Assembly (NCBI GenBank): GCA_965204345.1
Contig: OZ241981.1
Location: 1,440,001 to 1,504,000 of the forward strand
Reading direction: 5' to 3'
DNA length: 64,000 bases
Source of the DNA: Nitrosopumilus sp.
GTDB lineage: Archaea > Thermoproteota > Nitrososphaeria > Nitrososphaerales > Nitrosopumilaceae
In this document: piece by piece, positions 11,296-43,530 of the stretch
Numbering within the stretch: position 1 is the stretch's first letter
How the letters are laid out: every line of letters starts with the position of its first letter
The notes under the pieces: generated by a model
The model's input: the letters and a program-made list of their open reading frames with translations, nothing else
Told to the model about the DNA's origin: nothing
Database searches by the model: none
Program-made: the position numbers and the translations under genes

Positions 11296-11598
11296 ATGGC
11301 AAATGATCCTTATGCAAGAAGGCTTCTCTGGTTTGTATTTGCAGGCTCTAGAGGAGGATTAAATCGATTAAAAATAATTTCTAAATTAAAGGAAAATCCA
11401 TTCAACATAAATCAACTGGCAAAAGAATTGAATCTTGATTACAAGGCCATTCAACATCATATCAGAGTACTGGAAAAAAATAACATGGTAAGCAAAGTTG
11501 GAGAAAAATACAATGTAACCTATTTTGTATCCACTTTTCTTGAAGTCAATATGGAGACATTTGAAGAAATTGAAGAGAAATTGGATAAAAGTAAATAA
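11296..11598 (+). CDS. ArsR-like winged-helix transcription regulator
   Basis: GSRGGLNRLKII...NINQLAKELNLDYKAIQHHIRVL. Confidence 0.85.
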   Translation: MANDPYARRLLWFVFAGSRGGLNRLKIISKLKENPFNINQLAKELNLDYKAIQHHIRVLEKNNMVSKVGEKYNVTYFVSTFLEVNMETFEEIEEKLDKSK

Positions 11599-11623
11599 AA
11601 GCTCAAGCGGTGTCTGTGACTAA

Positions 11624-11908
11624 ATGGAACCCACCTCACTGATCCTATCAGTTGTCTCAATGGCAAATATGGGCATATTGGGTATCTTGATTGCAATTTT
11701 TGGAAACATGTATCGCAAAACCCAAGCGCAGCTTCCTTTGGGAATGATCGTCGTTGCTGGAATGCTAATTTTACATAATGTAATTGGCGCCATTGGTTAT
11801 TTCTCTCATGAGATGATCTTCTCTCATGACATATTCCCATATATGTTGGGGGTAGGTATTGCAGAACTTGTTGGATTAATCATATTTCTAAGGATCACTT
11901 TGGACTAG
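11624..11908 (+). CDS. Small 3-TM membrane protein paired with the wHTH regulator
   Basis: Three hydrophobic helices; resembles 36652-36954. Confidence 0.75.
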   Translation: MEPTSLILSVVSMANMGILGILIAIFGNMYRKTQAQLPLGMIVVAGMLILHNVIGAIGYFSHEMIFSHDIFPYMLGVGIAELVGLIIFLRITLD

Positions 11909-34091: not shown

Positions 34092-35015
34092 CTAAATTTT
34101 GATATATTTTCTAGTCTTGAAAACTATGATTGCAGGAATTCCCACATACATTCCCAGATTCATCACAATAACTCCAATTCCATATGATAGCACTTCTGAG
34201 TCAGATTCTGCATATTGCATTAGATATAGGGTAGACAACATTGGAGTAATTGAGAATTTAACCATTTCCTTGAATGCTGGATTTTCTCTTTGCATGTCTG
34301 CAATGTATGGTGAGAATGAATAGTACAATTGGTTAAATCCACTCATAAATGAAACACCCGAATCTGTCTTCATTAGTTGATTATCTCTGATTTCTCTGAG
34401 TAACTGAACTTGTGGTGCCATCTCTGAATCATATGCAGCTGTTGCAATCAAACAACCTCCTCCTCCTCTTCCTCCAGAATTATCTATAATCATACACATT
34501 CCATCAACAAGATCTGTTCCTTTTCCACATTCTCCAACTTCCGGTTCTCCAACTTTTGGTTTCATAACTTCCCGTTCCATAACTTCCGATTCCATAACTT
34601 CTGGTACTTCCGGTTCTCCAACTTTTGGTTCTTCCAACCCTACTGCATGATAAATTGAGTCATATTCTGGATATGTATTATCAAACCACTCTTTGTAGAT
34701 ATCCTCCGTATTGTATCTGTCAACATAGCTCTGTGCGTCTTTGGATTCATCTACAAACGGTGCAGGAACCGGCAGTGGTTCTTCCAACCCTACTGCATGA
34801 TAAATTGAGTCATATTCCGGATATGTATTATCAAACCACTCTTTGTAGATATCCTCCGTATTGTATCTGTCAACATAGCTCTGTGCGTCTTTGGATTCAT
34901 CTACAAACGGTGCAATTCCTAACTCTTTTGCTTCTGCTGCTACATTGGCATAATTTGGAACCACCATTAATACAAGTAATGAACATACTGCGAATAGTCC
35001 TAATTTTGTTCTCAT
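34092..35015 (-). CDS. CFI-box-CTERM domain surface protein with two 50-aa repeats
   Basis: GGGCLIATAAYDSEMAPQVQLLREIRDN...YYSFSP.IAD and a C-terminal TM helix; start at ATG 35015. Confidence 0.85.
   Translation of the reverse strand: MRTKLGLFAVCSLLVLMVVPNYANVAAEAKELGIAPFVDESKDAQSYVDRYNTEDIYKEWFDNTYPEYDSIYHAVGLEEPLPVPAPFVDESKDAQSYVDRYNTEDIYKEWFDNTYPEYDSIYHAVGLEEPKVGEPEVPEVMESEVMEREVMKPKVGEPEVGECGKGTDLVDGMCMIIDNSGGRGGGGCLIATAAYDSEMAPQVQLLREIRDNQLMKTDSGVSFMSGFNQLYYSFSPYIADMQRENPAFKEMVKFSITPMLSTLYLMQYAESDSEVLSYGIGVIVMNLGMYVGIPAIIVFKTRKYIKI
34625..34928 (-). repeat. 150-bp tandem repeat x2, homologous to the 31085-31687 unit
   Basis: tccaaccctactgc at 34633 and 34783. Confidence 0.9.
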
Positions 35016-35094
35016 AATGATGATTGTACGATTTAGACTTTTAAAAAACACGTATAATTTGTTCTATAAACTTGCAAAGAAATCTTTACCAACT

Positions 35095-35514
35095 TTACAG
35101 ATCAAGTAAGAATCTCATATAGGTTTCCTTGTCTTCTTGCCTTATTTCCATGTCATAAAATGTTGGGGCTTTGATCTCTACTTTGAAATTATGTTTTACC
35201 ACATCTAATGGCTCACCAAATGCCCTGGCATTAATTACGTATCCGTTCTCTTCTTTGATCTCAAACTCTGTTCTTCTTATTGCAAAACCTTCTGTGATTA
35301 GAACAAATGAAATTTCTTCCAACCAACTAAACAAGAGATATCTCAAATCTTTTCCACTTGCAGAAAATTCCTTTTGATCTTTTTCTTCTATTTTGTCTTG
35401 GTCTAGTGTTAGGCTGATTTCTGCATCTGCTGCTACTGCAAATGCTTCCTTGAGGTTTTTGGCTGTAACCTCAATTATTGCATCTGTTGCATGATCTAGA
35501 AATTTGTAACTCAA
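35095..35514 (-). CDS. Archease
   Basis: YKFLDHATD, VEIKAPTF, C-terminal LDL. Confidence 0.9.
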   Translation of the reverse strand: MSYKFLDHATDAIIEVTAKNLKEAFAVAADAEISLTLDQDKIEEKDQKEFSASGKDLRYLLFSWLEEISFVLITEGFAIRRTEFEIKEENGYVINARAFGEPLDVVKHNFKVEIKAPTFYDMEIRQEDKETYMRFLLDL

Positions 35515-35845
35515 TTATAATTTTGTAGTCTTTGTTGATTATTAATTTAGATGGTTTACTCTGCTTTCTCATCTATTTTTATAATGCCAAACATCTGCCT
35601 TTAGTATTTGTGCATTGTGCAAACTATCCAGTCTTGGGAATTTCTATTTGGGAATAGGTAACTGTCTTCTGTTCTCTACAATCTTTTCTGAGAACAACAA
35701 GTGAAAAACAATAATTCCAAATGCCTTGCTACACAAGGCTACAAAATGAGATCTCAAAGAGGCTACAGAATCCCATAATTTGGGAACTGTCAAACTATAT
35801 TTTTAAATAAAAATAAAAAAATAATTCCAACTAGTGTTAGAAAGA

Positions 35846-36589
35846 TTATTTCATTCGTACAATGTCAATCTTGACTGCTGGGTTACCCCATGCATGAACA
35901 CTTTTCAGTAAATCATTATCACCCATTATGCCTGGATGTGGAATGACTACTCCACCCTCTGCAATTGCGTCATTACTTGCACCTGTTCCTTCATCACCAT
36001 TATCTGAAGAAATTCCAATAGCTCCTTGACAGGGAGGAACCAAGTCTGCAAAGTTTTCTGTATTCATTTCAGTTCTTGCATCATATGCTTTTGCGTAAAC
36101 TGTTTTTTGGTTAATTGGAAGTCTGATTGTATCAGCTCCTGCAAAACCATCATTTGTACAAACCAACATGCTTGCAAATGAAAGATATCTCATGTTACCC
36201 TCAGATGACACGATAAACGTCTCTGAATGACTCAAGCCTGTATTTCCAGGATCATTTGCTGGAACTAGAGGAGCTTCACCTTGAACAATACTCAAAACAC
36301 CTGATTTATCTTGGAGCATTTTGACTAGCGGTTCTGAATTTCCGTTTTCAACCAACTGCTGAACGTTATCACTTGCCATCTCACCTACTGTAAAAAATCC
36401 CGCATTCATAGAATGTGTAACTAGCAATGGTGGAGTGATTGGTTGTCCTGGTGTGAGATTTGTAATTGTAACCTCATACATCTTTGTTTTTGCAGCACTA
36501 GACTCGGGTATTCCTGATACACTTACAACAGCTAACATTGCAACTATTGCAGTTATTGCAAGAACACTTGTCTGCTTTGTTTTCATCAA
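35846..36589 (-). CDS. Secreted Spondin_N domain protein
   Basis: YEVTITNLT.GQP.TPP, SMLVCTNDGFAG, YDARTEMNTE. Confidence 0.85.
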   Translation of the reverse strand: MMKTKQTSVLAITAIVAMLAVVSVSGIPESSAAKTKMYEVTITNLTPGQPITPPLLVTHSMNAGFFTVGEMASDNVQQLVENGNSEPLVKMLQDKSGVLSIVQGEAPLVPANDPGNTGLSHSETFIVSSEGNMRYLSFASMLVCTNDGFAGADTIRLPINQKTVYAKAYDARTEMNTENFADLVPPCQGAIGISSDNGDEGTGASNDAIAEGGVVIPHPGIMGDNDLLKSVHAWGNPAVKIDIVRMK

Positions 36590-36622
36590 GATTATGACCC
36601 TGAAAAATCACCTTAAGTGTTT

Positions 36623-36641
36623 GCCCACTTTATACCCCAAT
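36623..36641 (-). promoter_or_regulatory. Conserved upstream motif, copy 1 (ATTGGGGTATAAAGTGGGC)
   Basis: Ends 34 nt before the Spondin_N start and is followed by ACTTAAG (TATA position). Confidence 0.65.
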
Positions 36642-36651
36642 CCTACCTGAG

Positions 36652-36954
36652 TTATCTTCTGGTAATCCAGACAAGAACTGATAATCCAATTGTTTGAATT
36701 ACATTTATTGCAAATAAATAATGTGACACCATGTCAGCTGATACCATTAATGCTTTATTGTGCATGTATAGCGTAGGCCAGAATAAAATAATCACAATAT
36801 TTTGTAGCATTAATAGTGATGCAACCAATACTAGGCCTGAAGTATAGTATGATCTAATGACTCTCATGTTTTGGACATAGGTTCCAATCACAACTAGTAG
36901 TAATGCAATGTTGAGAAATGCAGATATAACTGCAGCGAGCATAAAGTCTATCAT
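36652..36954 (-). CDS. Small 3-TM membrane protein paired with the wHTH regulator
   Basis: Three hydrophobic helices; motif spacing (N...Y..N...GL...L.N) similar to 11624-11908. Confidence 0.75.
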   Translation of the reverse strand: MIDFMLAAVISAFLNIALLLVVIGTYVQNMRVIRSYYTSGLVLVASLLMLQNIVIILFWPTLYMHNKALMVSADMVSHYLFAINVIQTIGLSVLVWITRR

Positions 36955-36981
36955 GACTCTTTGCCTCTAAAATTCATTAAT

Positions 36982-37374
36982 TTACTTTGTTCCAATTTTT
37001 TTCATAATCTCTTCTAAAACATTTTGATTCTCTTTCATAATCTGTGTTAATTCATATTCTGCTGCATACTCTTTTTCAGCTTTGATTACAAGCTCATTTT
37101 TTGCAAGAATTTTTACATGATGGATTACTGTTTTATGATCTAAATTCAACACAGTTGCAATTTTGTTTGCATTCATTGGGGTATCCTTGACTAGATTGAG
37201 GATTTTTGCTCTGTTTATGCCTCCTCGGGTGCCTGCAATTATAGACCAAAGTATCATTTTGAATCTGGGATTTGGATTTGTTTCTCCATCTGTTTGCCCT
37301 GAGAATGAAAATAATCCCTTTGGAATAATATCTGAAAGTAAGAATGTTGGTAGGGTAATTGTTGCTGCAAACAC
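36982..37374 (-). CDS. ArsR-like winged-helix transcription regulator
   Basis: LWSIIAGTRGGINRAKIL...NANKIATVLNLDHKTVIHHVKIL; in-frame GTG at 37374 about 25 nt after a CTTATAT box. Confidence 0.82.
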   Translation of the reverse strand: MFAATITLPTFLLSDIIPKGLFSFSGQTDGETNPNPRFKMILWSIIAGTRGGINRAKILNLVKDTPMNANKIATVLNLDHKTVIHHVKILAKNELVIKAEKEYAAEYELTQIMKENQNVLEEIMKKIGTK

Positions 37375-37435
37375 TGATTTTTCAGATTTTGTGTAGGATA
37401 TAAGAAATTCCTTTTGAGGTTTTTTAGTAGTGTTT

Positions 37436-38482
37436 CTAAGGCGATAACTCTGCGCTTCCAAATAATACACCAAATGCTTTGCACCAAATCAGGACTTTGT
37501 TGTATTTGGTCAAGTCGGTGTCATCTGGAATTTCATAGTTCTGATTTCCATTATTTGCCTTGAGTTCTCCCAAGTTAACAAATTCTGATGCATTATCATC
37601 TGTTGATAAATAGACATACAAGTCTGGACCATTTGTTGATTTGAAATTCTCTAGTCTTAATACAGTACTTGTGTCTTCTAATGGTATTGTGTATGCATCT
37701 CCTTGTGCATCATGAACTCCATCACCAACACCGATGAATTTTCCTGTATAAGATATTGGAATGGTTTCTTTTACCATTTCATCTTCCATCATCATCATCT
37801 CCTCTTCCTCCATCATCATAGCATCATCTTCCATCATCATCATCTCCTCTTCCTCCATCATCATAGCATCATCTTCCATCATCATCATCTCCTCTTCCTC
37901 CATCATCATAGCATCATCTTCCATCATCATCATCTCCTCTTCCTCCATCATCATAGCATCATCTTCCATCATCATAGCATCATCTTCCATCATCATCATC
38001 TCCTCTTCCTCCATCATCATAGCATCATCTTCCATCATCATCATCTCCTCTTCCTCCATCATCATAGCATCATCTTCCATCATCATCATCTCCTCTTCCT
38101 CCATCATCATAGCATCATCTTCCATCATCATCATCTCCTCTTCCTCCATCATCATAGCATCATCTTCCATCATCATAGCATCATCTTCCATCATCATCAT
38201 CTCCTCTTCCTCCATCATCATAGCATCATCTTCCATCATCATCATCTCCTCTTCCTCCATCATCATAGCATCATCTTCCATCATCATCATCTCCTCTTCC
38301 TCCATCATCATAGCATCATCTTCCATCATCATCATCTCCTCTTCCTCCATCGTAGATTGACTAATTGCACCAGCTGGCAATGCCTCATCGATAGTTGATT
38401 CTGTAAAGTATGGGGATAATGCAAATGCTGAAACTGTTCCAACTATAATTACTGCAATAGCAATTCCAACTAGCTTATTCAT
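37436..38482 (-). CDS. Membrane-anchored DM13-domain protein with Met/Glu/Asp-rich repeat linker
   Basis: N-terminal TM helix; C-terminal GKFIG..HDAQG...LRLENFKSTNGPDLYVYLS...VLIWCKAFGVLFGSAEL. Confidence 0.88.
   Translation of the reverse strand: MNKLVGIAIAVIIVGTVSAFALSPYFTESTIDEALPAGAISQSTMEEEEMMMMEDDAMMMEEEEMMMMEDDAMMMEEEEMMMMEDDAMMMEEEEMMMMEDDAMMMEDDAMMMEEEEMMMMEDDAMMMEEEEMMMMEDDAMMMEEEEMMMMEDDAMMMEEEEMMMMEDDAMMMEDDAMMMEEEEMMMMEDDAMMMEEEEMMMMEDDAMMMEEEEMMMMEDDAMMMEEEEMMMMEDEMVKETIPISYTGKFIGVGDGVHDAQGDAYTIPLEDTSTVLRLENFKSTNGPDLYVYLSTDDNASEFVNLGELKANNGNQNYEIPDDTDLTKYNKVLIWCKAFGVLFGSAELSP
37778..38350 (-). repeat. 45-bp tandem repeat (EEEEMMMMEDDAMMM) x11 plus a partial copy, with two 21-bp inserts forming a 201-bp higher-order unit
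   Basis: Pattern 4 units + EDDAMMM + 4 units + EDDAMMM + 3 units + partial, read from the translation. Confidence 0.92.
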
Positions 38483-38516
38483 GATTGAATCCTATGTTCT
38501 TGGTATATAGTGCATT

Positions 38517-38535
38517 TTCCACTTTTGACCCCAAT
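38517..38535 (-). promoter_or_regulatory. Conserved upstream motif, copy 2 (ATTGGGGTCAAAAGTGGAA)
   Basis: Ends 35 nt before the DM13 ATG and is followed by CTATATA. Confidence 0.65.
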
Positions 38536-38596
38536 CTTTAGACACTAATATGCTTACCAGTAAGGTAATTTAGTGAGGGTTTAATCTCAAAATCAA

Positions 38597-39145
38597 ATGG
38601 AACCATTTGATTCGTTGATTCCTTGGATTACTAATTTTTTAGGTGATCATCTCTATGAAGGTGTATTTTTGGCAGCTTTGCTTGAGACAATAATTCCTCC
38701 TATTCCCACACTAGCGATATTTCCAACTGCTGGATTCTTGGCATCTCAACAAGGAATTATATTAATTGGATTAATACCGATGATTATCTTTGGTGCTAGT
38801 GGTGCTACTGTTGGAAATATTGTAATTTATCTAATAGCACTAAAACTAGGACGGGTTGTTTTACTTCGCTATCTGAAATATGTCAGGATTTCAGAAAAAA
38901 AATTAGGCAGAGTCGAAGTTTGGTTTGAAAAATATGGTGACAAGGCAGTATTTTTGGGAAGGATGGTTCCTGTAATGCGAGAGATGATTTCAGTTCCTGC
39001 AGGATTATTAAAAATGAAATTTCTAAAATTTGTATTATACACATTTGCGGGTTCATGTGTTTGGGCTACTGCAACTATTTTGGCAGGATATTATTTTGGT
39101 GAAGCAATAGGTCTTACCACTAGCGCTTTGGAATCATTACCTTAA
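38597..39145 (+). CDS. DedA-family membrane protein
   Basis: LETIIPPIP, FEKYGDKAVFLGRMVPVMR..ISVPAG. Confidence 0.9.
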   Translation: MEPFDSLIPWITNFLGDHLYEGVFLAALLETIIPPIPTLAIFPTAGFLASQQGIILIGLIPMIIFGASGATVGNIVIYLIALKLGRVVLLRYLKYVRISEKKLGRVEVWFEKYGDKAVFLGRMVPVMREMISVPAGLLKMKFLKFVLYTFAGSCVWATATILAGYYFGEAIGLTTSALESLP

Positions 39146-39362
39146 ATATCATAAACACCATATGTACATTAACGTCCTATGCTTAGCTGGATGGTTTCCA
39201 GGGATTCTTCAATACTCCCCTAATAGTTGAAGAATTTCTGTTTATTTTTTTATCTAGTATCTGAAATTTTGCCCTTTGCATTTTTTTATCCTAATTCTTT
39301 AATTCCTTTCTTTGCAGTATAGTCAATATTTCCATGATCCATCCATGATTCATAAAGTCATA

Positions 39363-40154
39363 CTAAAAACTTCCTAGTGTTTTTTGTTTTTTCTCATCCC
39401 AAACCAAGTCTTGCATTCCTAATTGCATCCTTAGTGAATTAGCAGTATCTGCTGCAAATCCTTCCAAGTGATTGTTGGCCATTACCATTGCTAATGGAAT
39501 ATTTTTAATCTCTTTGAGTTTTTTTGCCCAGTTTACGATCAATTCTTTTTTATTTTTTGTAACTTTTCCAAATTCTGAATCTGGAATTGAGCGGTCTCCA
39601 ATCAATCTAACGTAGAGATAATCCGTTGTAATTGGCATTGGATTATTCACTCCTGTAACTTCATTCCATACAAGACAGTGTTTGTTTTGTTTTAGATATG
39701 TTATGGCCTCATCTGAAAACCATGATTGATGTCTTCCCTCAATTGGATATACAAAATCTTTGGGAAGCATATCAAATAGTTCTCCTAGTCTTGGTTTTGC
39801 CTCTTCAAATGATAATGATGGGGGCAATTGCAAAACCAAAGCTGAAATCTTTTCATGAATTGGAACTAGTGATGATAAAAATGAGAAAATTTCTGAATTT
39901 ACTCCATCTAGCCTCTTTTCGTGCGTAATTGTGGATGGAAATTTTGCTGTAAATTTGAAATGCCTTGGTGTATCTGCATTCCACCGCCTAACTATTTCTT
40001 GTGCGGGAATTCTGTAAAATGTGGAATTTATCTCTGTAATACTAAAAAGCTGAGAATAATATTTCAGCCATTGAGAACTCTTTAGATTTTTGGGATAAAA
40101 AGTTCCTGACCATCCCTGATAGCTCCATCCCGTACATCCAATTTTGAATTCCAT
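39363..40154 (-). CDS. DUF72 (YecE-like) protein
   Basis: IGCTGWSY..W...FYP, EINSTFY, LQLPPS, YVRLIG. Confidence 0.9.
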   Translation of the reverse strand: MEFKIGCTGWSYQGWSGTFYPKNLKSSQWLKYYSQLFSITEINSTFYRIPAQEIVRRWNADTPRHFKFTAKFPSTITHEKRLDGVNSEIFSFLSSLVPIHEKISALVLQLPPSLSFEEAKPRLGELFDMLPKDFVYPIEGRHQSWFSDEAITYLKQNKHCLVWNEVTGVNNPMPITTDYLYVRLIGDRSIPDSEFGKVTKNKKELIVNWAKKLKEIKNIPLAMVMANNHLEGFAADTANSLRMQLGMQDLVWDEKKQKTLGSF

Positions 40155-40276
40155 AATGACATTTATTTTTGATTAGAACTTAAAATTCCTATTATTTTGA
40201 TGTCGTAGAATTGCTTAGATTTATGTATTAAGTGATCTTTGAAATTATTTTTTACATCTATTTTTCTTTCCAAAAG

Positions 40277-40292
40277 ATTGGGTCGGTTGGAA
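40277..40292 (+). promoter_or_regulatory. Degenerate upstream motif, copy 3 (ATTGGGTCGGTTGGAA)
   Basis: 3 nt shorter than the other copies; ends 36 nt before ATG 40328. Confidence 0.45.
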
Positions 40293-40327
40293 AATTGGCC
40301 TAATATCAATATTGAAATTTTTATTCA

Positions 40328-40990
40328 ATGACGAACAAAATAGTTCCAGTCTTATTCATTATGACTGCTCTTATGAGATCTGCTACAGTAGAATCTGTAG
40401 AATTAATTCCAAATGCTGAAGCTCTTTAGCATAAAGGTAACAATATCTGTCTTCTTTGGAGAATCCAAACTGATACTTGGGATAATCCTGATAGTGCAGA
40501 TTTTCTAAGGACTGTAGGTGAGGTTACTAAAGAGCATCTGATGAAAAACTTGAAAATGGACTAGTAGCTGGGTTTGTGGTAAACTGTTCATTTGTTAAAG
40601 TGGATTCTAAGATGAATAAATGATGAAAGAGGATCACATGATGGATAACAGAGTGATCAAATCCAGTCACATGAAAGATGATTTGACTGCTTTTGTAGGC
40701 GATGCTCCATTTGGATGTAAAACTGTTGGAACCTACTTTATGGCAGTTCAAGCAAATGATCAAGTCAAAGTAGTCACAAACATCAAAAGCGTTTCATCAG
40801 GAATGGTTCTTGAAGGATGGCTTGTCGATGTGGATTCTGACTATAAGCTAAGAATTGGCAAAGCAAATCATAATGGAAAACTCTTCTCCTCACAACCAAT
40901 GGCAAATCCTGTATTTATGGTCCCAATTTTGTTAACAGAGGGAGACCAATAGGAGATACAAGCCCTGTGTCACCCGGCATGCCTGTTGGT
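40328..40990 (+). pseudogene. Decayed secreted protein with a Met/His-rich patch and RskA-C-like domain
   Basis: MTNKIVPVLFIMTALM...PNAEAL* signal fragment, several stops, then MMKEDHMMD...SGMVLEGWLVDVDSDYKLRIG. Confidence 0.55.
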
Positions 40991-41062
40991 GGAATCTCAC
41001 TTTTTATCCCCTTTGGACTCTGGTCCAATTTCTTATTTTTATTGTATAATGATATATTTTCA

Positions 41063-41081
41063 ATTGGGGTCTGATTTGGGA
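41063..41081 (+). promoter_or_regulatory. Conserved upstream motif, copy 4 (ATTGGGGTCTGATTTGGGA)
   Basis: Ends 38 nt before the first ATG (41119) and is followed by TTAATTAT. Confidence 0.65.
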
Positions 41082-41105
41082 TTTTGGTTAATTATCCGAG
41101 TTCTT

Positions 41106-41171
41106 TAAAACCTAATCAATGACCTTGCTAAAACCTAATCAATGACCTTGCTAAAACCTAATCAATGACCT
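41106..41171 (+). repeat. 23-bp tandem repeat (about 2.9 copies) spanning a start codon
   Basis: TAAAACCTAATCAATGACCTTGC at 41106, 41129 and 41152 (partial). Confidence 0.9.
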
Positions 41172-43003
41172 CATTAGTTGTTAATTTCTCATTAAGAAAA
41201 GAAGTATTTTTTATCACTTTGGGCTCATTGTTTGGAGCCTTTGTCATGTTTATCCCCAATTTTCTCTTGGATGCATTTACAAATTCTGAATTTTACTTGT
41301 TTTGGATAGTAGCCGCTAGGCTTTTTGGTTCTAGTGACTACCTGGTTGGAGTGTTTGTACATTTTGGAGTAGCTACCATTATTGGAATAATTGTTGGGTT
41401 GATACTATACAAAACAAAAATACTCAACATTTCAAAATTAACCAATGGAATAATTTTTGGAGTTTTAGCAGGAACCGTTGTTACTGTTGTTTTTACAATT
41501 CCCGTTCAATATTTTTGGATTCAGCCTATCATGGCAGAACTAAACAATACTCCTGTAGGTAATTTTGTTCTATCAGAAGAATTTCTAATAAAATCATTTT
41601 TGACGCATTTTCTTTGGGGTGGAACCTTGGGAATTTTGGCATCCTTTTTGACTGCAAAAAAAGGAATGAATTACAGATGCCATAAATGTGATATAGAATT
41701 TTCAAAACTTAGCACGTATGAAGAACATTTTCAATACATCCATGTCTCACCTCATCCCCATACACAAAAAATTGTTATCTTAGGTGGCGGTTATGCAGGT
41801 GTAGGCGTATTAGAAAAAATCCAAAAGCAATTTCAAAAAGATGTTGATATTGACATTTCTATTATTTCAGAACATAATTTTTTTCTTCACACTCCAATGC
41901 TGCCAGAACTATCTACTGGAACTATTGAACCACGCCATATTGCTACTCCGATTAGAAATTTCTGCAAACGTGCCAGATTTTATCAAGCCAAAATAATGAG
42001 TGTTGATTTGGACAAAAAATTTGTAACCATTGATAATTCTGGAGGCAAAAAACAGCTAGAGTATGACTATCTGGTCATTGCAACTGGAACTAAAACAGGA
42101 TTTTTTGGAAATGAAAATCTAAAGAAACATTCTCTTACAATTAAGACTTTAGATGATGCTAATGTACTTAGAAATCAAATAATAACTCAATTAGAGTTAG
42201 CTGATCAACAGGAAATCTCAAAACAACCTGAACTTTTGTCTTTTGTTGTAGTTGGTGGTGGATTCTCTGGAGTTGAAACTGCTGGTGAAATCAATGAATT
42301 TATTCGTGAATCTGCTGAGAAATACTATCGAAATATTGAGCCTGATTCTATTCAGATCAGCCTAATTGCAGCACGAGATCATATATTGCCTGAAATTGGA
42401 ACTCTTGGAAAATATGCTGCAAGTTCTTTAGAAAACGCAGGTGTGAATATAATTTACAATACCAAGGTAACTGATGCTAATACCACACATATCTCACTAA
42501 GTGATAATGCTGAATTGTATTATTCCATGTTGATATGGGCAGGCGGCAATGAATCCCAGGACTTTGTACAATCACTTGACGTTGAACATCATAAATCAGG
42601 GAGAATACTAGTTGACAAATATCTTAGGCTGCCAGAATATTCCAATGTATTTGCATTGGGTGACTGTGCATATATTTTAAATTCTAAAAATGAGCCATAT
42701 CCTCCAACTGCACAGCACGCCATAAGAGAGGCAAAGACCGTGTCTAAAAATCTGATTTCATCAATTCGCAACAATGGCAAATTATCAATATTTGATTATT
42801 CATCAAAGGGCTCTATGGCAAAAATTGGAAAACGGGATGGGGTTGCTAGAATGCTTGGAGTTAATCTAACCGGATTTACAGCTTGGTTTGTGTGGAAGCA
42901 ATACTATTTGTCAACTCTTCCCGTAATGGAGAAACGAATTAGAGTCGGTCTTGATTGGTTTGTGGATCTTTTCTTTACTCGTGATATCACTAAACTAAAT
43001 TAA
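41165..43003 (+). CDS. Fusion: multi-TM domain + C2H2 zinc finger + NDH-2-type FAD/NAD(P)H oxidoreductase
   Basis: About 5 TM helices, CHKC..F.....EEHFQYIH, ILGGGYAG, FLHTPML, VVGGGFSGVETAGE, FALGDCA, PPTAQHA. Confidence 0.88.
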   Translation: MTSLVVNFSLRKEVFFITLGSLFGAFVMFIPNFLLDAFTNSEFYLFWIVAARLFGSSDYLVGVFVHFGVATIIGIIVGLILYKTKILNISKLTNGIIFGVLAGTVVTVVFTIPVQYFWIQPIMAELNNTPVGNFVLSEEFLIKSFLTHFLWGGTLGILASFLTAKKGMNYRCHKCDIEFSKLSTYEEHFQYIHVSPHPHTQKIVILGGGYAGVGVLEKIQKQFQKDVDIDISIISEHNFFLHTPMLPELSTGTIEPRHIATPIRNFCKRARFYQAKIMSVDLDKKFVTIDNSGGKKQLEYDYLVIATGTKTGFFGNENLKKHSLTIKTLDDANVLRNQIITQLELADQQEISKQPELLSFVVVGGGFSGVETAGEINEFIRESAEKYYRNIEPDSIQISLIAARDHILPEIGTLGKYAASSLENAGVNIIYNTKVTDANTTHISLSDNAELYYSMLIWAGGNESQDFVQSLDVEHHKSGRILVDKYLRLPEYSNVFALGDCAYILNSKNEPYPPTAQHAIREAKTVSKNLISSIRNNGKLSIFDYSSKGSMAKIGKRDGVARMLGVNLTGFTAWFVWKQYYLSTLPVMEKRIRVGLDWFVDLFFTRDITKLN

Positions 43004-43100
43004 TTTCTGCGTGTTTTCATCCTCAGAACAGTATCTGAATCCTTGTAATTGAATCAAAGATGAAATTATTGTTTAAATTAAACAACATGCCAGTTATCTT

Positions 43101-43205
43101 ATGAAACCTCAATCATGTAGAAATTGTGGAAAAGAACTATTTCAAAACCAAAGAACATGTCCTAACTGTGGCAAGGAAACTGGTCACGATGATATTGAAA
43201 ATTAG
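43101..43205 (+). CDS. 34-aa zinc-ribbon microprotein (absent from ORF track)
   Basis: MKPQSCRNCGKELFQNQRTCPNCGKETGHDDIEN*. Confidence 0.6.
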   Translation: MKPQSCRNCGKELFQNQRTCPNCGKETGHDDIEN

Positions 43206-43530
43206 TTTTTATCGTAGATTATTACTGTGAATTTGTAATTTTCTTTATAGCTAAAGGTGTCTTCTTGATAAAGAAAGACTCCAAATGATACAAATTAAGG
43301 GAATCCATAAAAATCCAGTTAAGACAGATGGATGTGTATTGCAGATTTTGTGATACTTGTTCTACACTTTCGTTATCAGAGGCTTGGATGACAAATGTTG
43401 CTAAGACTTGGCCAAACAGGGGAGGTGCTCCAAATAGAAAAAAATAACACTGTGGATATCACTGAACTAGAGATATCCCATTGGGAATCAATTTTTGTTC
43501 TTAAATGAGTTTAATTCCTATTTTTCCAAG

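Follow-up and report, generated by a model that had tools for sequence, protein, structure and literature searches.

A conserved 26-nt promoter element and an adjacent wHTH–membrane protein gene pair in Nitrosopumilaceae

Gene cluster and motif copies in the window

The genes and promoter features described here lie within a 64 kb stretch of Nitrosopumilus sp. DNA (hereafter, the window) and are listed in Table 1. A sequence-only reading of this DNA had placed a shared promoter motif at four sites, all of which were recovered at the same positions. The core of the motif, ATTGGGGT-N6-TGG, has three exact matches on the two strands of the window versus 0.02 expected from 100 shuffles, and none of the shuffles (0/100) gave three. 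All three matches lie inside the cluster and correspond to the sites of the Spondin_N, DM13 and NDH-2 genes. They are oriented with their genes, as had been claimed, and end approximately 31–37 nt ahead of an ATG. No enrichment was seen in the window for looser versions: the core with up to two mismatches gave 21 matches versus 16.6 expected, and the motif octamer alone with up to one mismatch gave 53 versus 54.6. The extent first assigned to the motif proved too short, as the conserved element comprises 26 nt and starts with AAAG; its second half-site reads NTGG instead of KTGG (logo position 18: A5/C10/G15/T6).

Table 1. Positions of genes and promoter features of the cluster in the window
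Feature	Position	Strand	Sequence	Remarks
Motif site, Spondin_N gene	36623-36641	(-)	ATTGGGGTATAAAGTGGGC	
Motif site, DM13 gene	38517-38535	(-)	ATTGGGGTCAAAAGTGGAA	
Motif site, NDH-2 gene	41063-41081	(+)	ATTGGGGTCTGATTTGGGA	
Motif site, degenerate copy	40277-40292	(+)		
Exported spondin-domain protein	35846..36586	(-)		Pfam Spond_N 28.4 bits, cut-off 24; NCBIfam NF038123 E 1.1e-42
26-nt motif, spondin promoter	36620..36645	(-)	TAGGATTGGGGTATAAAGTGGGCAAA	Matrix score 31.9
Three-helix membrane protein (3TM), 100 aa, DUF8036-like	36652..36954	(-)		Atlas score 0.98 to DUF8036 clusters
ArsR/SmtB-fold wHTH protein, 130 aa	36982..37374	(-)		Pfam HTH_5 28.2 bits, cut-off 22
Motif-less promoter of wHTH and 3TM genes	37396..37418	(-)	CTCAAAAGGAATTTCTTATATCC	Conserved block in 17/17 sequences shown
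Membrane-anchored Met-rich DM13 protein	37436..38482	(-)		Pfam DM13 E 1.8e-20
26-nt motif, DM13 promoter	38514..38539	(-)	AAAGATTGGGGTCAAAAGTGGAAAAT	Matrix score 42.4
DedA/VTT-domain membrane protein	38597..39145	(+)		Pfam VTT_dom; divergent from DM13 promoter
Decayed motif	40273..40295	(+)	AAAGATTGGGTCGGTTGGAAAAT	Matrix score <12
Pseudogene, DUF7482 + Met-rich + RskA_C-like exported protein	40328..41020	(+)		tblastn of L018 orthologue
Core-only motif copy	41059..41084	(+)	ATTGGGGTCTGATTTGG (41063-41079)	Exact core match; matrix score <12
Perfect 23-nt tandem repeat, 2.9 copies	41106..41171	(+)		Triplicates NDH-2 start region
N-terminal membrane domain + C2H2-like zinc finger + type II NADH dehydrogenase-like flavoprotein	41165..43003	(+)		Pfam Pyr_redox_2 E 1.2e-42, NDH2_C

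The DM13 protein carries its DM13 domain at the C-terminus, together with a repeat linker of 216 aa that is acidic and Met-rich (41% Met); its gene contains a 45-nt repeat in 12.8 copies. In the DM13 promoter, 3 nt separate the motif from the TATA box, CTATATACC (38502–38510), and 5 nt from TATATA proper, and the ATG is at 38482. The divergent dedA gene has a conserved promoter block of its own, TACTAAATTACCTTACGAG. The spondin motif starts 6 nt past the stop codon of the 3TM gene and is followed by a weak TATA-like box, CTTAAGG (36611–36617), and the ATG at 36586.

One G is missing from the degenerate copy, which leaves its TTGG half-sites 9 nt apart instead of 12. Behind it, what had been described as a decayed RskA-like gene is indeed the remnant of a motif-headed gene, a pseudogene whose intact form is found in a related locus (L018); the RskA label is weaker than claimed, the Pfam match being below cut-off. 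A tblastn search with the 519-aa L018 orthologue returned five pieces in frames 1–3, with residues ~39–331 deleted and an in-frame stop at codon 34.

At the NDH-2 site a TATA-like box, TTAATTAT, occupies positions 41088–41095. The ATG 37 nt behind this site (41119), formerly taken for the gene start, opens an 8-codon ORF and is the first of three copies in the tandem repeat, which yields two such ORFs before the real start at 41165. The fusion ORF encodes 612 aa, and 76 proteins share its N-terminal 200 residues, most of them 584–660 aa long and a few shorter. The exact core match stands, but the site scores below 12 although it is itself among the 26 training sequences of the matrix described below, and its membership is weaker than claimed, the site being seen in the window only and the gene in none of the fetched loci. 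The NDH-2-like flavoprotein gene is perhaps a motif-controlled member in this genome.

A conserved site at a fixed position, linked to the wHTH and 3TM genes

Comparison of 30 related Nitrosopumilaceae loci revealed a near-invariant 26-mer, AAAGATTGGGGTCTAAASTGGAAAAT, located 4 nt before a TATA-like box. A matrix built from the 26 training sequences, mainly orthologous sites, was used to scan 584,379 bases (33 loci and the window), and returned 42 matches with a score of at least 12 versus none in each of five shuffles; these counts are descriptive only, because the matrix was trained on the same sites. Scores of at least 27 were obtained for 36 of the 42 matches, which comprise 29 different 26-mers. 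All 36 lie within approximately 1.4 kb of a wHTH gene in loci spanning up to 20 kb each, a closeness that within 10 kb is partly built in because the loci were fetched through this gene; the scan covered only genomes that have it. Locus counts here and below overstate the support, because related loci are non-independent samples. The sites were also listed independently of the matrix, by a plain heptamer listing and by an ATG-anchored alignment. The latter covers 22 DM13 promoters and shows near-invariance for the block CCTAAAGATTGGGGTCTAAACTGGAAAAY and for the CTWTATAYC box, whereas the flanks and the intervening 4 nt are variable. The invariant part of the motif is situated 19–30 nt upstream of TATA, and the BRE position is not conserved (0.1–0.6 bit in the logo). 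TATA-like boxes differ between gene classes and are conserved within each class.

At orthologous promoters, where the motif had been predicted to recur, it is present with a score of at least 27 in 20 of 23 assessable DM13 promoters; it is weakened in L004 and L027, and in L010 a deletion extends from mid-motif into the gene. The order DM13–wHTH–3TM is found in all 29 annotated Nitrosopumilaceae loci except L010, which has intact wHTH and 3TM genes and no motif at all, and the DM13 gene itself is broken in L001 and L027. MM(E/D) repeats occur in 20/20 intact DM13 orthologues (10–41% Met). L030 gave no match in the locus annotation; its wHTH gene (52% identical) nonetheless adjoins the same motif. 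The sequence scan and the locus comparison thus agree with the earlier proposal in tying the motif physically to the wHTH and 3TM genes.

The motif additionally heads DsbD/CcdA (DsbD_TM) genes in four other loci (L014, L018, L022 and L024), which strengthens the redox theme, as well as a DUF7482-like gene in L030 and RskA_C-like genes in L009 and L018. It is a conserved promoter-proximal element common to several transcription units encoding exported Met-rich or redox proteins, as the sequence-only reading had supposed. Among 30 sequences, 12 have a site scoring at least 27 behind the 3TM gene, and ten of these carry an intact ORF of at least 130 aa at 33 nt; among the 18 with lower scores such an ORF is found in only one, L015, where the spondin gene is intact despite a damaged motif. 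The motif behind the 3TM gene is decayed or absent where the following secreted gene has been lost, and is kept mainly where that gene is present.

The wHTH and 3TM proteins

The wHTH protein has 325 homologues, the best 120 of which are 71–85% identical. Its fold is that of ArsR/SmtB as judged by Pfam, a structure model and Foldseek (CzrA/SmtB), and it is preceded by an N-terminal tail of 35 residues that is conserved in the family and predicted to be disordered. In NCBIfam it comes closest to the SdpR autorepressor subfamily (E 1e-9; score 38.1, cut-off 100), and its sequence is devoid of Cys and of an obvious metal site. Its promoter has a strong TTTTTATAT box, with TATA at −29 to −24 from the GTG start, and lacks the motif, so that autoregulation is not implied. 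A second wHTH gene nominated earlier (11296–11598) turned out to be a paralogue, paired with a 3TM gene of its own and free of the motif. The wHTH protein of the cluster is the most likely candidate binder.

The 3TM protein, with 339 cluster representatives, has no match in the local Pfam copy. Alignments revealed that loop 1 is basic and conserved and the TM2–TM3 loop rich in Met; the short inward loop shows the highest conservation, and the Met-rich loop faces outward. Met occurs in the latter in 56 of 60 distant DUF8036-like proteins, with one column reaching 51% Met. The 3TM protein is probably a sensor and the partner of the wHTH protein.

The wHTH–3TM pair is also found in three distant archaeal loci. 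In L031 and L033 it adjoins Thioredoxin, DsbD_TM and Redoxin/Thioredoxin_10 genes, and in L032 an exported PMSR+SelR (MsrA–MsrB) fusion gene, so that a redox neighbourhood accompanies the pair in 3/3 cases. A cupredoxin gene is located near the L032 pair.

Proposed mechanism and alternative explanations

We hold with moderate confidence that the motif is the site of the adjacent wHTH protein and controls a local envelope redox/methionine-stress regulon with the 3TM protein as sensor. The motif would represent a predicted transcription factor binding site directly upstream of BRE/TATA, in promoters of leaderless or near-leaderless mRNAs, to which the ArsR-fold wHTH protein encoded in the cluster would bind. 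Since this protein lacks Cys and any recognisable metal site, its three-helix DUF8036-like partner, with which it would make contact, is probably what senses the signal. Under the signal, the pair may switch on or de-repress a small local set of exported proteins, namely the Met-rich DM13 and spondin-domain proteins and, in other genomes, the DUF7482/RskA_C-like protein and the DsbD/CcdA electron shuttle. The favoured signal is oxidative damage to envelope methionines and thiols. Activation rather than repression is favoured from promoter architecture: only 4 nt separate the motif from TATA, the promoters show no conservation at the BRE position and the spondin box is weak, as against the strong box of the wHTH promoter. 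No description of the motif or regulon was found in the literature searched, and a 26-mer before secreted Met-rich and redox genes suggests an envelope stress switch, not described so far, in marine ammonia-oxidising archaea. Points that run counter to this reading include the motif-free L010, the damaged motif of L015 and the motif-less wHTH promoter. In addition, ArsR-family proteins are repressors for the most part, and the 26-mer has no inverted repeat of the kind usual for them.

It is possible, if rather doubtful, that the same binder at the same site is a repressor, occupying an operator beside BRE/TATA until a signal causes the 3TM protein to draw it to the membrane and free the promoters. 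The precedent is SdpR–SdpI of Bacillus subtilis, in which a polytopic partner tethers an ArsR-type autorepressor to the membrane. As in that system, an ArsR/SmtB-fold wHTH gene without sensing residues of its own is paired with one encoding a small multi-pass membrane protein, SdpR is the best subfamily match (E 1e-9), and the 26-mer reaches to 4 nt from TATA, so the BRE position would be covered. However, the SdpR score is far under the cut-off (38 versus 100), and the 3TM protein is DUF8036-like and matches no SdpI model. The archaeal promoters, with their site upstream of TATA, and the absence of a toxin gene are further differences from SdpR–SdpI. The unconserved BRE and weak spondin box suit an activator-dependent promoter, and the wHTH protein is not an autorepressor through its own promoter, because no site is present there, which counts against repression.

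The same architecture might instead serve copper handling, by capture or buffering at the cell surface, and not repair of oxidative damage; we regard this as a tentative and less likely reading. Cu(I)-binding proteins are known to have a Met-rich composition of the MM(E/D) type, and such repeats are present in all intact DM13 orthologues. Ammonia oxidisers depend heavily on copper, and DsbD, here headed by the motif, is one of the genes most strongly induced in Nitrososphaera viennensis when Cu is limiting (PMC7785015). The cupredoxin gene near the L032 pair is in keeping with this. Against it, the distant pairs lie beside thioredoxin, peroxiredoxin-like and MsrA–MsrB genes and not copper transporters or chaperones, the wHTH protein lacks Cys and an obvious metal site, and the motifs described for Cu-responsive N. 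viennensis genes are different sequences. Copper handling and oxidant stress are equally compatible with the Met-rich acidic repeats and with DsbD.

Quite improbable is an extended core-promoter element read by a TFB/TBP paralogue, a sigma-like class with no role for the wHTH protein. The element does abut TATA in fixed register, and thaumarchaeal genomes encode multiple TFBs. TFB contacts, however, comprise only a few base pairs beside TATA, and the invariant part lies beyond them; moreover, 36/36 strong sites are beside a wHTH gene, and site and following gene decay together locally. Least credible, and already disfavoured, is that the copies are alike through recent promoter duplication or chance, with no shared regulator. 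Looser motif versions are unenriched in the window and the NDH-2 copy is a core match only, yet three exact matches stand against 0.02 expected, and the 26-mer is near-invariant across loci whose wHTH proteins are only 64–82% identical. Flanks, TATA spacer and leaders differ between loci with the same 26-mer, and the TATA-like boxes are class-specific and conserved within each class.

The proposed wHTH–3TM switch resembles the bacterial envelope oxidant responses SigF–NrsF with MrpX/MsrPQ, HprSR with MsrPQ, and SigK–RskA in that a membrane sensor would be coupled to a transcription factor, with exported Met-rich targets, electron shuttles for methionine or thiol repair and an RskA_C-like domain among the targets. 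It differs in having no sigma factor or histidine kinase and in its effector set (DM13, spondin, DUF7482); its RskA_C-like domain, a match under the Pfam cut-off, belongs to a target protein and not to the sensor. Ptr2 and TFB-RF1 are archaeal activators with sites immediately upstream of BRE/TATA; the site here likewise ends a few bases before BRE/TATA, where the promoters' own BRE and TATA look weak. Unlike Ptr2 and TFB-RF1, which belong to the Lrp family and to another HTH family, the candidate has an ArsR fold, and activation is proposed. OxsR of Haloferax volcanii is a single-domain TrmB-family thiol-based oxidative-stress regulator (PMC9426492), similarly a small archaeal winged-helix protein, the oxidant-stress tie being proposed here; OxsR senses through its own thiol, whereas the wHTH protein lacks Cys and has a membrane partner. 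In N. viennensis, genes that respond to Cu limitation share the motifs TTCSGSMTTTGWACYANT and an AT-rich 27-mer at −35 to −70 (PMC7785015). These also lie upstream of exported, DsbD and ArsR-linked genes, but differ in motif sequence, family (Nitrososphaeraceae) and gene set.

The promoter motif and its conservation

The four motif copies described in the sequence-only reading, ahead of the spondin-domain gene (spondin), the gene for the methionine-rich repeat and DM13-domain protein (DM13), the pseudogene and the gene for the NADH dehydrogenase-like fusion (NDH-2), were all found where that reading had placed them. Three of these sites are the only exact matches to the core ATTGGGGT-N6-TGG on both strands of the 64-kb window, against 0.02 expected (100 dinucleotide-preserving shuffles, none with three matches); the pseudogene copy has lost one G and its spacer is shortened. 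Looser patterns show no enrichment in the window (21 matches to the core with at most two mismatches versus 16.6 expected, and 53 matches to the octamer with at most one mismatch versus 54.6 expected), and the signal within the window therefore rests on the exact copies. Every copy is oriented in the direction of its downstream gene and is followed by a TATA-like box, as had also been described. The box reads CTATATACC at DM13, CTTAAGG at spondin, TTAATTAT at NDH-2 and CCTAATATC at the pseudogene, and the ATG lies about 27–31 nt past its start. Among the 45 window ORFs of at least 150 aa, TATA-like hexamers made up of A and T alone are most frequent at −33 to −24 relative to the ATG, and leaderless or very short-leader mRNAs thus look to be the norm in the window.

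A search with the ArsR-type winged-helix protein of the cluster (hereafter, wHTH) returned 325 homologues with E up to 1e-3, out of 501 candidates; of the 325, the best 120 share 71–85% identity across all 130 residues. Scanning of genome contigs with an alignment of 23 wHTH homologues matched 165 stretches and 33 loci were confirmed, comprising 30 from Nitrosopumilaceae (L001–L030; wHTH 64–82% identical, one 52%) and three from distant archaea (L031–L033; 33–46%). The gene order DM13, wHTH and three-helix membrane protein (hereafter, 3TM) is found in all 29 annotated Nitrosopumilaceae loci except L010, and L030 is without a match in the annotation. A plain listing of TTGGGGT places the motif before DM13 and behind 3TM in most loci. 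With its flanks the motif amounts to a 26-mer, AAAGATTGGGGTCTAAASTGGAAAAT, within which GATTGGGGT and TGG form blocks.

A matrix built from 26 distinct sites was scanned against 584,379 bases and gave 42 matches with a score of at least 12, of which 36 are strong (at least 27; 29 distinct sequences), versus none in each of five shuffles; the matrix was trained on the sites being scanned, and these counts are therefore descriptive and not a test. Conservation at orthologous promoters, on which the sequence-only reading had staked its regulon, is borne out independently of the matrix by an ATG-anchored alignment of 22 DM13 promoters. Here hardly any position of the 26-mer or of the TATA box varies, in contrast to the 4 nt that separate the two, the leader and the flank further upstream. 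A score of at least 27 is reached by 20 of the 23 assessable DM13 promoters, the eight loci left out being seven with contigs that begin inside DM13 and L030, which has no DM13. The motif is weakened in L004 (score 23.2) and in L027 (score 13.3, one G lost), where the wHTH match is shortened to 72 residues and the DM13 frame is broken after 16 codons. In L010 (9660–9720) a deletion has left the motif with its first half only, which runs straight into the central part of the DM13 domain; wHTH and 3TM are intact in this locus and the site behind 3TM is gone. One site is found at two or more transcription units and is conserved at orthologous promoters, as for a shared operator, and its position relative to the TATA-like box is that of a Ptr2/TFB-RF1-type upstream activating site, a type that sits immediately before BRE/TATA and is bound by factors that stimulate TBP/TFB recruitment. 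No further motif sites at the right distance from an ORF were seen in the locus flanks.

Directly behind the 3TM stop codon, a site scoring at least 27 is present in 12 of 30 sequences, and in ten of these an intact ORF of at least 130 aa starts 33 nt past it. Most of the ORFs behind the strong sites encode spondin, and those of L009 and L018 encode RskA_C-like proteins. Of the two remaining sequences, L001 has a frameshifted spondin and L016 has lost the start. The score falls below 27 in the other 18 sequences, with visible remnants in L003, L008, L012, L013, L027 and L029, and an ORF is kept behind the weak site only in L015. The loci are related, and hence these counts do not represent independent events.

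A mobile-element end, a terminator and an RNA element were each considered for the motif and rejected. The motif keeps a constant distance to TATA and ATG, is oriented with its gene and is lost together with the gene downstream, all of which speaks for a promoter element. An Rfam scan of 35000–43500 with E up to 1 returned no RNA family at the motifs, and its single sub-threshold match, snoRNA-like, lies within the DUF72 gene.

Genes of the cluster and of related loci

Genes of the motif-bearing cluster, with window coordinates
Feature	Coordinates	Strand	Remark
Exported spondin-domain protein	35846-36586	-	
Three-helix membrane protein, no Pfam match	36652-36954	-	
ArsR-type winged-helix protein	36982-37374	-	
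Membrane-anchored protein, Met-rich acidic repeat and DM13 domain	37436-38482	-	
DedA/VTT protein	38597-39145	+	
DUF72 gene	39363-40154	-	
Pseudogene, relative of the 519-aa protein of L018	40328-41020	+	alignment in five pieces
Membrane domain, zinc finger and NDH-2-like flavoprotein	41165-43003	+	

The Met-rich linker of DM13 (37779–38351, − strand) consists of 12.8 copies of a 45-nt unit, and the repeat is a recent expansion because it shows 100% identity at a 201-nt period. The linkers of DM13 orthologues range over 37–216 aa with differing repeat units and lengths, always with MM and acidic residues, and MM(E/D) repeats are kept in 20/20 intact orthologues.

The pseudogene had been taken for a decayed RskA-like gene. 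Decay is evident in comparison to the L018 protein, since the aligned pieces fall in three frames, a stop occurs at codon 34 and residues ~39–331 are absent. The RskA_C matches, of 18.5 and 20.6 bits, stay below the gathering cut-off of 29.4. The L018 protein itself has two DUF7482 domains, a Met-rich stretch and an RskA_C-like end that is below the cut-off in Pfam. No sigma-factor family was found among the cluster proteins scanned, and with it no RskA/ECF-sigma pairing; archaea are not known to have sigma factors.

Other genes lie under the motif in related loci. DsbD_TM/CcdA genes divergent from DM13 each have a motif copy of their own in L014, L018, L022 and L024, and in L030 a DUF7482-like exported protein is found under the motif, beside the wHTH with 52% identity, the recognition helix of which is kept as read from the sequence.

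The NDH-2 fusion is conserved, with 76 proteins having the first 200 residues in common; most are 584–660 aa long and a few are shorter, and the start of the 612-aa ORF at 41165 is consistent with the length of most homologues. A perfect 23-nt tandem repeat (41106–41171, + strand; 2.9 copies) triplicates the ATG region between the promoter and this true start, leaving two 8-codon ORFs there. The gene had been counted as part of the regulon, and its site fits the motif core only. The fusion gene is absent from all 33 fetched loci; the genomes to which L001 and L003 belong do encode orthologues, but more than 10 kb away. Membership of NDH-2 in the predicted regulon is plausible, though comparison lends it no support.

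The winged-helix protein and its putative membrane partner

The wHTH matches HTH_5 with 28.2 bits (cut-off 22), as an ArsR/SmtB protein should. Its AF2 model is confident for residues 36–127, the conserved first 35 residues being disordered, and has the helices, recognition helix, beta wing and C-terminal helix of the ArsR/SmtB fold. The highest Foldseek matches to the model were CzrA and SmtB (E about 1e-4, TM 0.7 on target), and the best PDB sequence matches were Phr and CzrA. In ArsR/SmtB metal sensors, the ligands are Cys at or close to helix 3, or Asp/His of the final helix. The window protein and 23 aligned homologues are devoid of Cys and have a C-terminal helix without His, and so the wHTH is unlikely to sense metal or oxidant itself.

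The wHTH and 3TM genes are served by a conserved promoter of their own, which is without the motif in 17/17 sequences. This block (37396–37418, − strand) lies in the short gap after DM13, with a strong TATA 24–29 nt ahead of the wHTH GTG; the aligned start codon is GTG in 15 and ATG in 2 of the 17 sequences. A paralogue of the wHTH (11296–11598, + strand; 39% identity) likewise has a 3TM partner (11624–11908, + strand), for which hhalign gave a probability of 98% against the DUF8036-like alignment. The paralogous pair (11296–11908) has no copy of the motif and is neighboured by radical SAM, RNase H-like and CoA-ligase genes.

The 3TM family numbers 339 cluster representatives, and 77 of these have an E-value of 1e-10 or below. 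In a local Pfam copy the window protein matched no family, DUF8036 (PF26119) included, and 67 relatives gave only scattered weak matches to unrelated families. The Atlas, which annotates DUF8036 under Pfam 38.1, returned feature-search values of 0.98, 0.96 and 0.92 for clusters composed wholly (100%) of DUF8036, a lead rather than an alignment. By the positive-inside rule, loop 1 and the C-terminal RR would be inside and the TM2–TM3 loop outside. Loop 1 is basic and the most conserved loop; the TM2–TM3 loop has 4–5 Met in Nitrosopumilaceae and contains Met in 56/60 distant members, with one column 51% Met. Prediction of a wHTH–3TM complex scored 0.00 in two runs with controls not folded, and speaks neither for nor against binding.

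In the three distant loci the pair is followed by repair genes. An exported thioredoxin, a DsbD-type membrane protein and a Redoxin plus Thioredoxin_10 protein are encoded after it in L031 (10626–13099) and L033 (8420–13639), the latter with AhpC-TSA and a ferric-reductase-like membrane protein also nearby; in L032 (8120–12240) the pair precedes an exported MsrA–MsrB fusion, with a cupredoxin nearby. All three distant pairs thus lie in clusters for extracytoplasmic thiol or methionine repair. The regions ahead of the pairs in L031–L033 showed nothing that resembles the motif.

Adjacent transmembrane-protein and regulator genes, one with DUF7521, occur in Haloferax volcanii as HVO_B0192/HVO_B0193, reported to show the strongest induction of all genes in a mutant of a quorum-sensing regulator (bioRxiv 10.1101/2025.11.10.687552). 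This hints that such pairs are a wider archaeal theme; DUF7521 was ranked near DUF8036 by the Atlas.

Predicted regulation and its signal

In the simplest reading, the motif would be bound by the wHTH encoded next to it, and the DUF8036-like 3TM protein would be the candidate sensor. We favour a role for the wHTH as activator at the motif promoters, as the invariant part of the motif is placed 19–30 nt ahead of TATA, the BRE position shows no conservation and spondin has a weak box. A serious rival, by analogy with SdpR/SdpI, is that the wHTH acts as a repressor that would be freed from DNA by capture at the membrane. The closest NCBIfam model to the wHTH is the SdpR autorepressor subfamily (NF033789), but far below the cut-off (38.1 bits versus 100), and no match to the SdpI/YhfL family was found for the window 3TM and 67 family members. 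As for the signal, gene neighbourhoods lead us to prefer oxidative damage to methionines and thiols of the envelope, with copper as the main alternative. The MM(E/D) repeats kept in every intact DM13 orthologue speak for copper, as does the response of DsbD to Cu limitation in Nitrososphaera viennensis; the motifs reported for N. viennensis, however, differ from the 26-mer (PMC7785015).

It is possible, if doubtful, that the wHTH and DUF8036-like protein constitute a two-gene envelope-stress signalling module that is widespread in archaea. The outer-loop methionines would then be oxidised by HOCl or H2O2, or would bind Cu(I), and their state would decide the access of the wHTH to its DNA site. 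The output in Nitrosopumilaceae would be sacrificial Met-rich surface proteins together with DsbD electron supply, and in DPANN-type archaea thioredoxin/DsbD/MsrAB repair operons. In function, such a module would parallel the ECF sigma/anti-sigma pairs of bacteria, or HprSR.

The sequence-only reading knew of no description of this regulon, and we likewise found no motif, regulon or pair function in the literature searched on ammonia-oxidising archaea, copper, DM13 and DUF8036/DUF7521. New here is the prediction of a local regulon in which the transcription factor, an archaeal protein of ArsR type, is partnered at the membrane by an uncharacterised DUF8036-like protein. Ammonia-oxidising archaea are drivers of marine nitrification and are notably sensitive to peroxide and copper supply; to our knowledge, almost nothing is known of their gene regulation. 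The analysis yields a defined and conserved 26-nt site, a candidate regulator, a candidate membrane sensor and a short list of predicted target genes, which opens a first thaumarchaeal stress regulon to direct testing. Because the regulator and DUF8036-like protein also adjoin thiol and methionine-sulfoxide repair genes in distant archaea, their pairing suggests a general way for archaea to relay signals through the membrane with neither sigma factors nor histidine kinases; if true, this would assign a function to an uncharacterised protein family.

A further exported protein is encoded in the window at 34092–35051 (− strand). It has no Pfam match, contains an exact internal duplication of ~50 residues and has a Gly/Cys-rich stretch ahead of its C-terminal hydrophobic end. 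Homologues are found within a few kb of the wHTH and 3TM genes in many loci.
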